Notes under the pieces: generated by a model
Database searches by the model: none
The model's input: only the letters and a program-made list of their open reading frames with translations
What the model was told of the DNA's origin: nothing
Source: Escherichia coli
GTDB lineage: Bacteria; Pseudomonadota; Gammaproteobacteria; Enterobacterales; Enterobacteriaceae
Direction: 5' to 3' (one strand)
Assembly (NCBI RefSeq): GCF_003334385.1
Contig: NZ_QOWN01000008.1
DNA length: 64,000 nucleotides
Made by a program: the position numbers and the translations under genes
Part shown: positions 9,850-17,369 of the stretch, one piece after another
How the letters are laid out: every line of letters begins with the position of its first letter
How positions within the stretch are numbered: position 1 is the stretch's first letter

Positions 9850-10036
9850 CTCTGCTTATTATTAAAAACAGGGCGAAACTTGCCCTGTTATCGCAACCCG
9901 CGCTACATATATCCACCCACACAGGCATATTGAGCGATTTTTGATATTTATTCATCTCCTTACGCACTATATTCAGAGCAATAAGTTGCCTCTTTTCATC
10001 TTGATTCAGCACAACCTTTGCAACTAAAAGGAGCCC

Positions 10037-11246
10037 ATGATGGTTACAGTTGTCAGCAATTATTGTCAATTATCTCAAACGCAACTCAGTCAGACATTTG
10101 CAGAAAAATTTACTGTGACCGAGGAATTACTGCAGTCTTTAAAAAAAACAGCGTTATCCGGAGATGAAGAAAGCATTGAGTTACTGCATAATATTGCGTT
10201 AGGTTATGATAAATTTGGGAAAGAAGCTGAAGATATTCTTTACCATATTGTTAGAACCCCAACAAATGAGACCCTATCGATTATCCGACTTATCAAAAAT
10301 GCTTGTTTAAAATTATATAATCTGGCACATATCGCAACCAACTCCCCCCTCAAATCACATGATTCAGATGATCTCCTGTTCAAAAAACTATTCTCCCCTT
10401 CGAAATTAATGACAATTATCGGTGATGAAATTCCTCTTATATCTGAAAAACAGTCGCTTTCAAAGGTGCTTTTAAATGATGAGAATAATGAACTGAGTGA
10501 TGGTACAAACTTCTGGGATAAAAATCGTCAATTAACCACAGATGAAATAGCTTGCTATCTTCAGAAGATCGCCGCTAATGCAAAAAATACTCAAGTCAAT
10601 TATCCTACTGGTCTCTACGTCCCCTACTCCACCAGAACTCACCTGGAAGACGCTCTCAATGAAAATATTAAGAGCGATCCATCATGGCCGAATGAAGTCC
10701 AGTTATTCCCCATAAATACTGGCGGACACTGGATATTAGTTTCGCTACAGAAAATAGTAAATAAAAAAATAATAAACTACAAATAAAATGCGTCATATTC
10801 AACTCATTGCGTGCACTAGGCTATGATAAAGAAAATTCACTTAAGCGTGTCATTAATAGTTTTAATTCTGAACTCATGGGAGAAATGTCGAATAATAATA
10901 TAAAAGTTCATTTAAATGAACCAGAGATAATATTTTTACATGCCGATCTTCAGCAATACTTAAGCCAAAGTTGCGGTGCATTTGTGTGCATGGCAGCCCA
11001 GGAAGTGATTGAACAAAGGGAAAGCAATTCTGACAGCGCCCCCTATACGTTATTAAAAACTATGCTGACAGATTTAAAAAATATTCAGCAGAAGAGCAGT
11101 ACGAAATTGATTTTCAACATCGACTGGCAAACAGAAATTGTTATTTAGATAAATATGGCGATGCAAATATCAATCATTATTATAGAAACTTAGAAATAAA
11201 ACACTCACAACCCAAAAATAGAGCATCCGGCAAAAGAGTGAGTTAA
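10037..11246 (+). pseudogene. elaD: elaD (CE-clan deubiquitinase-like cysteine protease) interrupted by two frameshifts
   Basis: Three colinear ORF fragments in frames 2, 1 and 3 (10037-10786, 10807-11148, 11142-11246) together span 1210 nt, about 403 codons minus 2 nt; frame changes sit at the A7 run 10763-10769 and the A5 run 11055-11059; a good RBS (AAAAGGAG) precedes the ATG at 10037. Confidence 0.75.
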
Positions 11247-11263
11247 CATCATTGTTAATTAAT

Positions 11264-11295
11264 TCGACCAGTCAGCAAATATGCTGACTGGTCGA
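11264..11295. terminator. Perfect inverted repeat between the convergent genes elaD and yfbK; possible bidirectional terminator
   Basis: tcgaccagtcagca-aatat-gctgactggtcga, 13-bp arms; flanks are A/T-rich but there is no clean U-tract. Confidence 0.4.
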
Positions 11296-11316
11296 ACATA
11301 GTTTGCTAAACAGTCA

Positions 11317-13044
11317 TCACTGACTGATGTCAGTCACACCATCCGCCAGTTCAATCAGGCGAATAAATTCCGCCCTGTAACCCTGTGGATCTTCCCCTTT
11401 TGCCTGCTGAGCCCACTGTTTGATCTGCTGCCAGGAGGTATTGTTCAGGTATTCAGAACCGCGTAACTTTTGCCCATATGCAGCTACTGCTGCGCGAAAA
11501 CGCATATCTTCAGAGGGCGCGTTTATTGTTGGCCCCAGCGGGAATTCAACTAACTGACTTTCTTTTCCCTGCGGGTATTTCCAGCGAATTTTTAACCAGG
11601 CCAGTTCTTTCGTTTTGTCCGATTTCGCTAATTTGTTATCCGGGGCATAGCGTAACTTATCAATTGATGCTTTTTGCCCGTTCAGCGTTAATTCGAATAA
11701 CAACGTTATATGTTTGCCTGCGCCTATATCCCCTGCATCAACGTTGTCGTTATTAAAATGTTCCACCCGAAGTTGGCGCTTTTCATAACCAATCTGACGG
11801 TATTCCGTTACCCACGCGGGGTTAAACTCAATTTGCGCTTTGACATCTTTTGCTACGGTAATCAACATCTGCCGCATTTCACTATTCAATACTTTCTGCG
11901 CTTCAGAGAGGGTATCAATGTAGCTGTAGTTGCCGTTACCAACATCGGCAATTCGCACCATCATTGCCTCGTTGTAATTGCTATTCCCCACGCCAAACGT
12001 CGACAGAGTAACACCAGACTCCCGCTGTTTTTTGACCATTGATTCAATCGATTTTGGATCGTCAATGCCAACGTTAAAGTCACCGTCAGTGGCTAATAAA
12101 ATGCGATTGATGCCGCCCTTAATAAACCCCTTCGTCGCCTGCTGATAAGCCAGTTCCAGCCCGGCACCGCCATTGGTACTGCCTTCGGCATCCAGCGAAT
12201 CAATTGCGGCATTAATTTCCGCCTTATGACTCCCGGAGATAGAAGGCAATGCAATACGGGAGTCGCCAGCGTAGGTCACGATGGCAATGTTATCCTGCTC
12301 ACGAAGTTCTTTGACCAATAATTTCAACGAAGACTGGATAAGTGGCAAACGTTCATCAGAAATCATTGAACCAGAAGTGTCGATAAGAAAGACCAGATTA
12401 GAAGCTGGTAACTCTTCACTTTTGCGATCTTTCGCCAGGATATCAACTTTCAGCAATGTTCGCTGTTCATTCCATGGTGCAGGTGCCAATTCGTAGCGCA
12501 TAGCGAAAGGTATTGGCTTAGAGGCCGGAATAGATTGTTTGTCTTTGATATCCCAATCAGACGGGAAATAATTGACTATCTCCTCCACCCGCACAGCGTC
12601 TGGCGGAGGTAACAGCCCTTGATTGAGGAAACGCCTTACATTCGCATAACTGCCAGTGTCAACGTCAAGACTAAACGTCGCCAACGGATTTTGCGCTACC
12701 TGCTTAACCGGATTATCATCGAACTGCTGGTAGCGAGCGGTTCCTGGATTTGCGATATGTGTAGCTTTTGCTTTAGCCGCTCTTGCAAATGTTGGCGCTT
12801 CCTGCAATCGCCCCTGTAAAGCCTGTTTGTCTGAATATTGTTGCACTTCTTGCTGGGCCAAGGCTTTCGCGGCGGCGGCGCTTTGCTCAGCCTCTTTTAT
12901 TGCAGCTTGCTGCGCGGCAAGCACTTGCTGCTCTGTGGGAGTACTGGGTTGTTGTTGCTGACTTTCCTTATTCTCAGGTTGCGGCCCACATCCTGACAAA
13001 ATCAAACTACTCATAAGCAACATGATTATATTTTTATTTCGCAT
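11317..13044 (-). CDS. yfbK: YfbK, predicted lipoprotein with von Willebrand factor A domain (575 aa)
   Basis: Lipobox LILSGC near the N-terminus, Q/A-rich low-complexity segment, vWA MIDAS motif DTSGS. Confidence 0.85.
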   Translation of the reverse strand: MRNKNIIMLLMSSLILSGCGPQPENKESQQQQPSTPTEQQVLAAQQAAIKEAEQSAAAAKALAQQEVQQYSDKQALQGRLQEAPTFARAAKAKATHIANPGTARYQQFDDNPVKQVAQNPLATFSLDVDTGSYANVRRFLNQGLLPPPDAVRVEEIVNYFPSDWDIKDKQSIPASKPIPFAMRYELAPAPWNEQRTLLKVDILAKDRKSEELPASNLVFLIDTSGSMISDERLPLIQSSLKLLVKELREQDNIAIVTYAGDSRIALPSISGSHKAEINAAIDSLDAEGSTNGGAGLELAYQQATKGFIKGGINRILLATDGDFNVGIDDPKSIESMVKKQRESGVTLSTFGVGNSNYNEAMMVRIADVGNGNYSYIDTLSEAQKVLNSEMRQMLITVAKDVKAQIEFNPAWVTEYRQIGYEKRQLRVEHFNNDNVDAGDIGAGKHITLLFELTLNGQKASIDKLRYAPDNKLAKSDKTKELAWLKIRWKYPQGKESQLVEFPLGPTINAPSEDMRFRAAVAAYGQKLRGSEYLNNTSWQQIKQWAQQAKGEDPQGYRAEFIRLIELADGVTDISQ

Positions 13045-16379: not shown

Positions 16380-16437
16380 AACATTTATATAAACAGATAA
16401 GCGGATGTTTACATAAATTTTTATGTGAAGGAACATG

Positions 16438-17286
16438 ATGAAACTTATTCCTCGCAGTAGTGATATTTCACCTGGCATTGATGGAATTTGCCCGGGGCCT
16501 TTTCCTCCGAACGGATTTACCGTACTTACAGATGCAGCATATGGTAACGGAGACTGTTTCGGTTTGTACTGGCCTATTGGTCAGGAGCATAAACTACCTA
16601 TAGTGTGCGAAACGTACCATGACGAATGGCGAATCGTACCTGCCTTTTCCAGCATTAAGAAGTTCGAAGAATGGCTGGAAGTGAATGATGATGCTCCCCA
16701 TGAAAATGGCATCAGCATCGAAGATCAAGACTTTGCAGCAAATCTCTTCCGTGTTGCTCGGAAATGTCTTTCAACGGGAAGGCTTGATGACGCACTGCCA
16801 CTGTTACAGCGAGCAACAGAACAATTGCCTGAAGTCAGCGAATATTGGTTAGCACTGGCAATCCAGTATCGCCGATGTAAAAAAACAGAAGCTGCAGCAC
16901 AGGCTGCGCTTAATGCTTATCTTGGCAATTGGGCATTTGGTGTTCCTGACAATAAAGTCATTCATTTGCTGTCACAGGCCGCAGATGTCCCGAATTTCCA
17001 GGATGATCCTGTGATTCAGTGCATTAAAGAACAAGGATTAGATCTTAGCTTTGGAGGAACAAAGGAAAATAATAATTACCCCTTGATGCAGATGTGTGTT
17101 GATACTTATTTTGCGCAGAGAAAACCGCTTCAGGCATTAACCCTGTTACATAATTATGCCTGGATAATGTCCAGTGAAACGACTGCATTTCAGGAACGCT
17201 ATGATTTTAATATCGATGAATGGCGGGCAAAATTCAGGCAGTTATGTTTAGAGTATTTTGGCGATAGTCGTACACAGTTCACTTAA
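16438..17286 (+). CDS. yfbP: YfbP, uncharacterised protein (282 aa)
   Basis: MKLIPRSSDISPGIDGICPGPFPPNGF...; syntenic position. Confidence 0.8.
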   Translation: MKLIPRSSDISPGIDGICPGPFPPNGFTVLTDAAYGNGDCFGLYWPIGQEHKLPIVCETYHDEWRIVPAFSSIKKFEEWLEVNDDAPHENGISIEDQDFAANLFRVARKCLSTGRLDDALPLLQRATEQLPEVSEYWLALAIQYRRCKKTEAAAQAALNAYLGNWAFGVPDNKVIHLLSQAADVPNFQDDPVIQCIKEQGLDLSFGGTKENNNYPLMQMCVDTYFAQRKPLQALTLLHNYAWIMSSETTAFQERYDFNIDEWRAKFRQLCLEYFGDSRTQFT

Positions 17287-17317
17287 CGCTCTGCGTCTAT
17301 CTACTATCCCTTCTTTT

Positions 17318-17350
17318 TCAGAAAAACCGCCGAGCATGTCGGCGGCTTTC
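17318..17350. terminator. Bidirectional rho-independent terminator between yfbP and nuoN
   Basis: Hairpin ccgccga-gcatg-tcggcgg; on the minus strand it is followed by TTTTTCTG (end of the nuo operon). Confidence 0.55.
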
Positions 17351-17369
17351 TGACTTACAAAGTAACAGA

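Follow-up and report, generated by a model that had tools for sequence, protein, structure and literature searches.

The interval between rbn and nuoN of Escherichia coli carries seven genes, elaD, yfbK, yfbL, yfbM, yfbN, yfbO and yfbP, which form an islet at positions 9850-17369 of the 64,000-nt window of a K-12-like E. coli chromosome analysed here (all position numbers refer to this window). Our comparisons show that this interval is an old, AT-rich and hypervariable accessory locus of the Enterobacteriaceae, with published H-NS binding at yfbN. Its left module comprises elaD, a presumed counterpart of Salmonella sseL that is dead in the window, and the divergent envelope pair yfbK/yfbL. 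The right module extends from yfbM as far as the terminator of nuoN, and is a toxin-less array of yfbM, the remnant of a gene named SMI1/KNR4, yfbN, yfbO and yfbP. We tentatively favour, at somewhat less than an even chance, the reading that the cassettes of the right module are orphan and immunity- or antitoxin-like. Each of the proteins would then bind, and so neutralise, a toxin of its own, either incoming or endogenous, such as one of the interbacterial polymorphic or abortive-infection type, and the competitors that a lineage meets would decide whether a cassette is retained, exchanged or lost. Earlier work had already described the genes, the prediction of an island and the link with H-NS; new here are the two-allele structure of the locus, the gene remnant at 14787-15034, the account of the YfbN family and the functional proposal drawn from genomic context.

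The GC content of the islet is 0.416 versus 0.527 for the remainder of the window, which is the minimum among all 7.5-kb windows within the 64 kb. The 500-bp windows between 10000 and 17500 range from 0.36 to 0.51, with a single one reaching 0.50 (12501-13000), whereas the flanks range from 0.50 to 0.60. Likewise, the GC content at third codon positions (GC3) of the islet genes is 0.31-0.47 (elaD 0.33-0.36, yfbO 0.31, yfbN 0.36, yfbP 0.37), in contrast to 0.70 for nuoN and nuoM. The gene order is rbn, elaD (+), yfbK (-), yfbL (+), yfbM (+), yfbN (-), yfbO (+), yfbP (+) and nuoN, as given by the open reading frame (ORF) list in agreement with the RefSeq annotation of two near-identical genomes, CFS3292 and K-12 J53, to which positions 9500-17600 align at 100.0% with one 1-bp gap and at 99.9%, respectively. 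Searches of the islet revealed no tRNA or tmRNA gene, no RNA family in Rfam, no integrase-like ORF (ORF list and NCBIfam), and no direct or inverted repeats at its edges; among the features of a classical genomic island, it has the deviant composition and the strain-variable presence, and lacks the integrase, tRNA and repeats. A preliminary description made from the letters alone had claimed that the islet is AT-rich relative to its flanks, that its alternating gene orientations are incompatible with a single operon, and that integrase, tRNA and direct-repeat boundaries are absent, and all these claims hold, the islet being clearly distinguishable from its flanks by sliding-window GC. The only other stretch of the window with a 1-kb GC below 0.45 is 32000-34500, which consists of lrhA itself and the alaA–lrhA and lrhA–nuoA intergenic regions.

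Within E. coli the locus is highly variable, and universal conservation, which would have spoken against the acquired islet of the preliminary description, is not seen: only 931 of the 5425 matching complete genomes hold at least 80% of positions 9500-17600. Strains of phylogroup B2 (CFT073, ST131) lack elaD and yfbNOP, and the absence of elaD from ST131 and ST95 of this phylogroup has also been reported (PMC12575377); O157 lacks yfbK and has a broken yfbL; in many strains yfbNOP is the sole loss; and most lineages miss yfbK, elaD or yfbNOP. Alignment of the junction with EC1722-1 delimits yfbN-yfbO-yfbP as a block of 2.56 kb (14762..17321, no strand assigned), in place of which 17 bp are found elsewhere. 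Of 5426 complete E. coli genomes, 1015 (~19%) carry the block, 985 of them at an identity of at least 99% and 24 at one of only 80-90%, and its presence does not follow that of elaD. Its right edge adjoins a GC-rich hairpin after nuoN, AAAAACCGCCGAGCATGTCGGCGGCTTT (17324..17348, no strand assigned), which forms the right-hand edge of the variable segment, and the sequence of which is kept in strains without yfbNOP. yfbNOP is thus a separate 2.56-kb cassette with a history distinct from that of the older left part of the locus; the single islet of the preliminary description is real, but it comprises at least two modules with different histories. IS3-family and IS5-like (ISKpn26) insertion sequences (IS) interrupt yfbNOP in genomes H41, H58 and H61, and such insertions show continuing decay of the cassette.

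The divergent class of these genomes carries a second, deeply diverged allele, which in strain ETEC6335, for example, has the order yfbM, a 190-aa gene annotated as 'SMI1/KNR4 family protein', yfbN', yfbO' and nuoN, and lacks yfbP. Between K-12 and ETEC6335, YfbN is 71% identical at the amino acid level, with a synonymous divergence (dS) of 0.72 and a ratio of nonsynonymous to synonymous divergence (dN/dS) of 0.24, and YfbO is 90% identical (dS 0.155, dN/dS 0.32); the flanking genes yfbM (99%, dS 0.08, dN/dS 0.03) and nuoN (100%, dS 0.05, dN/dS 0.00) have diverged far less. The divergence between the alleles is therefore steep and local, with a dS of 0.72 in yfbN versus 0.05-0.08 in the flanking genes. 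Judged by these ratios, yfbN and yfbO are real genes under purifying selection, and evolve faster than core genes (dN/dS 0.24-0.32 versus 0.00-0.05). The yfbN of ETEC6335 is 92% identical to that of E. fergusonii (dS 0.13, dN/dS 0.28), and nuoN of K-12 is 100% identical to that of E. fergusonii (dS 0.16, dN/dS 0.01). The yfbN of the ETEC6335-type allele is no further from E. fergusonii than nuoN is, so that this allele looks to be the one inherited by vertical descent in Escherichia, and the K-12-type yfbN, which comes with yfbP, would either predate the split of the genus or have been imported from outside it. Taken together, these comparisons show that deletions and the replacement of alleles or cassettes reshape the locus while its flanks stay conserved, and that this happens without a mobile element.

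The 270-bp gap between yfbM and yfbN, which has no RefSeq annotation in CFS3292 and J53, contains an unannotated, decayed gene remnant (14787..15034, + strand) that corresponds to residues 105-190 of the 190-aa 'SMI1/KNR4 family protein'. A tblastn search recovered it as three frame-shifted pieces with an in-frame stop at 52-81% identity (joint E 2e-19), and a phmmer comparison of the ORF 14818-15003 with the 190-aa protein gave E 3.5e-10. The gene is intact in the ETEC6335 allele (L070:5575-6147) and also in E. fergusonii. By this homology, K-12 formerly carried the SMI1/KNR4-named gene, and has lost its first 104 codons. The protein has no match in PHROGs.

Counterparts of the islet genes also occupy the rbn–nuoN interval in other Enterobacteriaceae. 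In one Salmonella record, rbn is followed by an unannotated gap of 1.1 kb, a vWA gene (yfbK), a DUF1877 fragment and nuoN; the size of the gap fits sseL, which presumably lies there. The order in E. fergusonii is nuoN, yfbN (71% identical), a 191-aa gene, yfbM, yfbK, a cheV-like gene and rbn. An enterobacterial contig (L005) has nuoN, a YfbN homologue (46%), two small genes, yfbL, yfbK, a cheV-like gene and rbn, and Superficieibacter has yfbK, yfbL, a 177-aa gene, a YfbP homologue, a YfbN homologue, a 328-aa gene and nuoN; yfbK is thus retained at the locus in Salmonella, E. fergusonii and Superficieibacter. Because counterparts occupy the same interval in these three groups, the accessory locus predates the genus, as read from synteny, with yfbK and yfbL as its stable core, which supports the great age that the preliminary description had ascribed to the islet. 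The cheV-like gene, which encodes a CheW and a receiver domain, fills the rbn–yfbK gap, i.e. the position of elaD in E. coli (L071:10984-11967 in E. fergusonii; L005:12772-13773). The adjacent rbn orthologues (L005:13856-14773 and L071:12030-12947) carry a precomputed Pfam match to PF23023 (Anti-Pycsar_Apyc1) beside Lactamase_B_2; the match of RNase BN to PF23023 probably reflects the common metallo-beta-lactamase fold, and not an anti-defence role.

The proteins of the right module are small and acidic (pI 4.1-5.1 for YfbM, YfbN, YfbO and YfbP) and have no hydrophobic segment, and no secretion signal was found in YfbN, YfbO and YfbP. All four had been described as lacking recognisable motifs, which proved too strong. 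yfbM (14256..14759, + strand) encodes a soluble acidic protein (pI 4.8) of the DUF1877/YfbM family (PF08974, precomputed), which matches PDB entry 1RYL chain A over its full length (residues 1-167, E 2.3e-108). A literature search for YfbM led to work on poultry that uses YFBM as an abbreviation for something else, and one for DUF1877 gave nothing useful. yfbN (15032..15748, - strand) encodes 238 aa with two weak UBA-like domains at the N-terminus and a helical C-domain. It has a UBA_4 match (E 0.003); its first UBA-like domain resembles the N-domain of EF-Ts (family-profile hhalign, probability 61%, E 8e-5), the second resembles the UBA-like domain of DCN1/FAM100B (E ~0.04), and W137 and E144 of the C-domain are almost invariant in the family alignment. 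This uncharacterised family has 133 representatives at the 50% cluster level, which apart from fragments are mostly 200-260 aa long. yfbO (15957..16379, + strand) encodes a very acidic protein of 140 aa, assigned to Pfam PF27222; this family is precomputed for the query cluster and its homologues (84 of the 85 listed), and is missing from the older Pfam copy used in our profile search. The AF2 model of YfbO has a pLDDT of 94, and no fold neighbour was found in PDB. yfbP (16438..17286, + strand) encodes 282 aa, with a conserved beta-rich N-domain (motif GNGDxFGLYWP) and a TPR-like helical repeat domain, the C-domain being assigned to TPR by profile matches and its helical-repeat fold. Large conjugative plasmids of Providencia, Proteus and Morganella encode a TPR protein homologous to residues 99-282 of YfbP only (47% identity; e.g. 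L078:6902-7561 in Providencia rettgeri pCHS4.1-3), with two matching places per listed plasmid. Since the Providencia and Proteus plasmid proteins match these residues alone, the two domains of YfbP are separable. NCBIfam gave nothing for YfbM, YfbO and YfbP and one sub-threshold match for YfbN, and no match to any of the four was found in PHROGs.

The features that speak for the immunity reading are the small size, acidity and lack of hydrophobic segments of these proteins, the clean presence (19%) or absence of yfbNOP, the two diverged alleles with the remnant in K-12, the purifying selection on the fast-evolving yfbN and yfbO, the independent distribution of YfbN, YfbO and YfbP without a neighbour family conserved across genera, and the company that some homologues keep. 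A YfbO homologue in a 7.8-Mb genome (L003) ends a same-strand run of an LHH toxin gene, two SUKH_5 genes and the YfbO gene, which adjoins a Tox-REase-5/Imm52/SUKH_5 set. The position behind a toxin gene that is expected of an immunity array is found for this YfbO homologue, and is not found in the window. On a Priestia plasmid, a YfbO-like gene lies in an array of small genes with DUF6678 and two DUF4304 genes. In Tenacibaculum, the YfbP homologue heads a 13-gene same-strand array that includes SMI1_KNR4 and GAD-like/T6SS_Tdi1_C genes, and in Shewanella another is the last of 13 arrayed genes, one of which encodes a relative of the Tenacibaculum Tdi1-like protein. The Tenacibaculum homologue stands in a comparable position directly behind a gene for an 896-aa protein, but this protein cannot be called a toxin, as Pfam gives weak MORN matches only. 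Cellulophaga species share the same YfbP-homologue cassettes with their order shuffled between species; the YfbP homologues of Joostella, Leminorella and a Planctomycetales genome also lie within similar arrays of small genes, and a YfbN-like gene lies in such an array on a Hymenobacter plasmid. TPR repeats, furthermore, are among the domains fused to the immunity domains Imm66-Imm69 (Zhang et al. 2012, PMC3482391).

A close comparison is with the orphan or poly-immunity arrays of polymorphic toxin systems (PMC3482391; orphan immunity of gut bacteria, PMC12247911; the Stenotrophomonas vgrG6 poly-immunity cluster, bioRxiv 10.64898/2026.07.13.738213). Like them, the right module has a low GC content, encodes proteins that are mutually unrelated in sequence, is present, absent or swapped between strains, and has an SMI1/KNR4-named gene at one position; some homologues of its genes lie beside LHH toxin, SUKH or Tdi1 genes. 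Unlike them, the islet has no adjacent toxin or secretion locus, YfbM, YfbN, YfbO and YfbP fall outside the defined Imm families, and many homologues are solitary, in some genera syntenically so.

Several observations weigh against the immunity reading. No toxin gene, Rhs element, contact-dependent inhibition (CDI) element or type VI secretion system (T6SS) element was found in or next to the islet (ORFs, NCBIfam), and no recognised Imm or SUKH family was assigned to YfbM, YfbN, YfbO or YfbP in Pfam or NCBIfam. The SMI1/KNR4-named protein has neither a precomputed Pfam match nor an NCBIfam match, so that its label is a RefSeq name alone, and hhalign against a four-sequence SUKH set aligned only the N-terminal helix motif (probability 2.4%). 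YfbO is 46-60% identical across distant taxa, which is unusually high for an immunity protein. Three of the four YfbO contexts examined are solitary, among housekeeping or toxin-antitoxin genes. The YfbP homologues of Stenotrophomonas, Xanthomonas and Janthinobacterium also stand alone, and have the same genomic surroundings throughout each group, which would fit a cellular function better than an immunity cassette. Among 88 array neighbours scanned with Pfam, SUKH matches numbered one or two, and most had no match. Finally, resistance to phage N4 is reported for the yfbO and yfbL mutants of the Keio collection, together with complementation (bioRxiv 10.1101/2025.09.29.679331), and this phenotype points to a role in ordinary cell physiology or in the envelope.

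Other published observations concern the same genes. Two chromatin immunoprecipitation (ChIP) data sets list yfbN with H-NS binding sites, SlyA induces the gene 2.8-fold, and IslandViewer places it within a predicted island (PMC5797941). The islet in this respect resembles the H-NS-silenced AT-rich loci of K-12, but it differs from such island-like loci in having no integrase, tRNA or repeats, and as part of it is syntenic across genera, it is not a recent insertion. The yield of recombinant protein is higher in a yfbN knockout (PMC7376861). When overexpressed genes were screened for the ability to block the retron-Sen2 toxin RcaT, yfbO was below the cut-off and was chosen for its genetic linkage with yfbN (bioRxiv 10.1101/2020.06.22.160242), so that yfbN itself apparently scored as an RcaT blocker. 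Such a score would fit a further step of the immunity proposal, which we consider rather doubtful, namely that YfbN, YfbO and YfbP are three new toxin-neutralising protein families, and that K-12 carries at nuoN a toxin-less acquired-immunity cluster, which would protect it from interbacterial or abortive-infection toxins. The three genes belong to those of the best-studied bacterium that still lack a known function. If they encode orphan immunity or antitoxin-like proteins, three new protein families would enter the repertoire of interbacterial and phage conflict, the scattered phenotypes (the RcaT-blocking link, N4 resistance and recombinant-protein yield) would gain a framework, and rbn–nuoN would offer a simple model in nature of how cassettes turn over with no mobile element involved. 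If not, the region would be an ordinary, already annotated, H-NS-bound accessory islet.

The main competing explanation, which we regard as possible but somewhat unlikely, is that the interval is a passive dumping ground or gene graveyard, in which unrelated, horizontally acquired, H-NS-silenced genes, varied and for the most part minor in function, have gathered without a functional theme at a permissive site beside a strong terminator, and are being lost by deletion and frameshift. The frameshifted elaD of the window, the frameshifted or truncated yfbL of some other strains, the lack of yfbK, elaD or yfbNOP in most lineages, the remnant at 14787-15034 and the IS insertions in yfbNOP of some strains are all expected under it, and so is the finding that the YfbN, YfbO and YfbP families are distributed independently of each other, with many solitary homologues. 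Mere accumulation, however, does not readily account for the purifying selection on yfbN and yfbO (dN/dS 0.24-0.32), the retention of the block at an identity of at least 99% in 985 genomes, the maintenance of two deeply diverged alleles, the recurrence of the association with toxin/immunity arrays in distant taxa, or the phenotypes reported for yfbN, yfbO and yfbL.

We consider it improbable that the islet serves in defence against phages or is a module of phage-related host factors. The N4 resistance reported for the Keio yfbO and yfbL mutants, with complementation, would suit this reading, but loss of yfbO leads to resistance, which is the opposite of what is expected for a lost defence gene. 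Like anti-phage defence islands, the locus is a variable one of small genes, and some YfbP-homologue arrays contain genes of AbiH, AAA_15 and Hypoth_Ymh; unlike them, it has no conserved multi-gene system, no PADLOC model matches any of the seven islet proteins (E up to 0.1), PHROGs has no match for the four right-module proteins, and the genes do not co-occur outside the Enterobacteriaceae. A distant YfbO-like gene (36% identity; L069:5986-6396) does occur on an IMG/VR contig of 79.6 kb, where it is flanked by an endolysin gene and by a cluster of metalloprotease, repressor and anti-repressor genes; this is a typical prophage accessory-gene site, and speaks for the phage-related reading.

Very improbable in our judgement is a host-interaction module in which ElaD, YfbN and YfbP would jointly target eukaryotic ubiquitin pathways through deubiquitination, UBA-like domains and TPR: the published deubiquitinase activity of the ElaD/SseL family member ElaD (PMC1847702) and the weak UBA-like matches of YfbN would suit it, but yfbNOP presence does not follow that of elaD, free-living bacteria of soil and sea (such as Janthinobacterium, Flavobacteriia and Planctomycetes) have members of the YfbN, YfbO and YfbP families, the three proteins lack a secretion signal, the first UBA-like domain of YfbN resembles the N-domain of a bacterial protein, EF-Ts, and elaD is dead in the window, and we rejected the idea on the distribution.

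As for the homologues at large, no conserved partner gene of YfbP was found across 50 genomes, and no neighbour family was common to different genera. NCBIfam gave nothing on ten homologue neighbours, and two negligible matches, both on one protein, among four further proteins. A 2.8-kb contig labelled 'MAG: Bacillota bacterium' (L019, JAEWTL010000023.1) encodes a YfbP 100% identical to that of K-12 and YfbN and YfbO ORFs that score as those of K-12, and is almost certainly E. coli contamination of a Bacillota bin.

In the left module, elaD (10037..11246, + strand) is a pseudogene of the ElaD/SseL family of CE-clan deubiquitinases, as judged by its reading frame, which is split into ORFs at 10037-10786 and 10807-11148. 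The pseudogene had been recognised in the preliminary description; it carries two frameshifts, not one: a run of seven A at ~10763-10769 where the intact K-12 J53 gene has eight, and an A missing at ~11054 relative to K-12 J53, each a deletion of 1 bp. The intact ElaD of K-12 J53 scores 455 bits on NCBIfam NF008812 (cut-off 250), so that the J53 copy reaches the family score; the window copy has no intact ORF. RefSeq labels elaD of CFS3292 'frameshifted'; that copy has the first deletion only and J53 has neither, so that the window exactly matches neither record. In Salmonella, sseL encodes a deubiquitinase effector of Salmonella pathogenicity island 2 (SPI-2). The elaD gene resembles the sseL locus in encoding a member of the same family (NF008812), and differs from it in that ElaD scores 112 bits on the SseL-specific model, for which the cut-off is 624, and in that the window gene is frameshifted. 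No match to ElaD was found in PHROGs.

The other two genes of this module were correctly described as encoding a vWA lipoprotein and an M28 peptidase. yfbK (11317..13044, - strand) encodes a vWA-domain lipoprotein with a lipobox LILSGC at residues 14-19 and precomputed Pfam matches to vWF_A, VWA and YfbK_C; a literature search for YfbK yielded gene lists only. yfbL (13182..14153, + strand) encodes an M28-family metallopeptidase (RefSeq name; Peptidase_M28, precomputed Pfam) with an N-terminal hydrophobic anchor (maximum 19-residue hydropathy 3.0 at residue 4). Both YfbK and YfbL gave weak matches only in PHROGs. Between the convergent elaD and yfbK lies a perfect inverted repeat of 15 nt (I3, 11263..11296, no strand assigned; 100% complementary, 4-nt loop), which is probably a bidirectional terminator.

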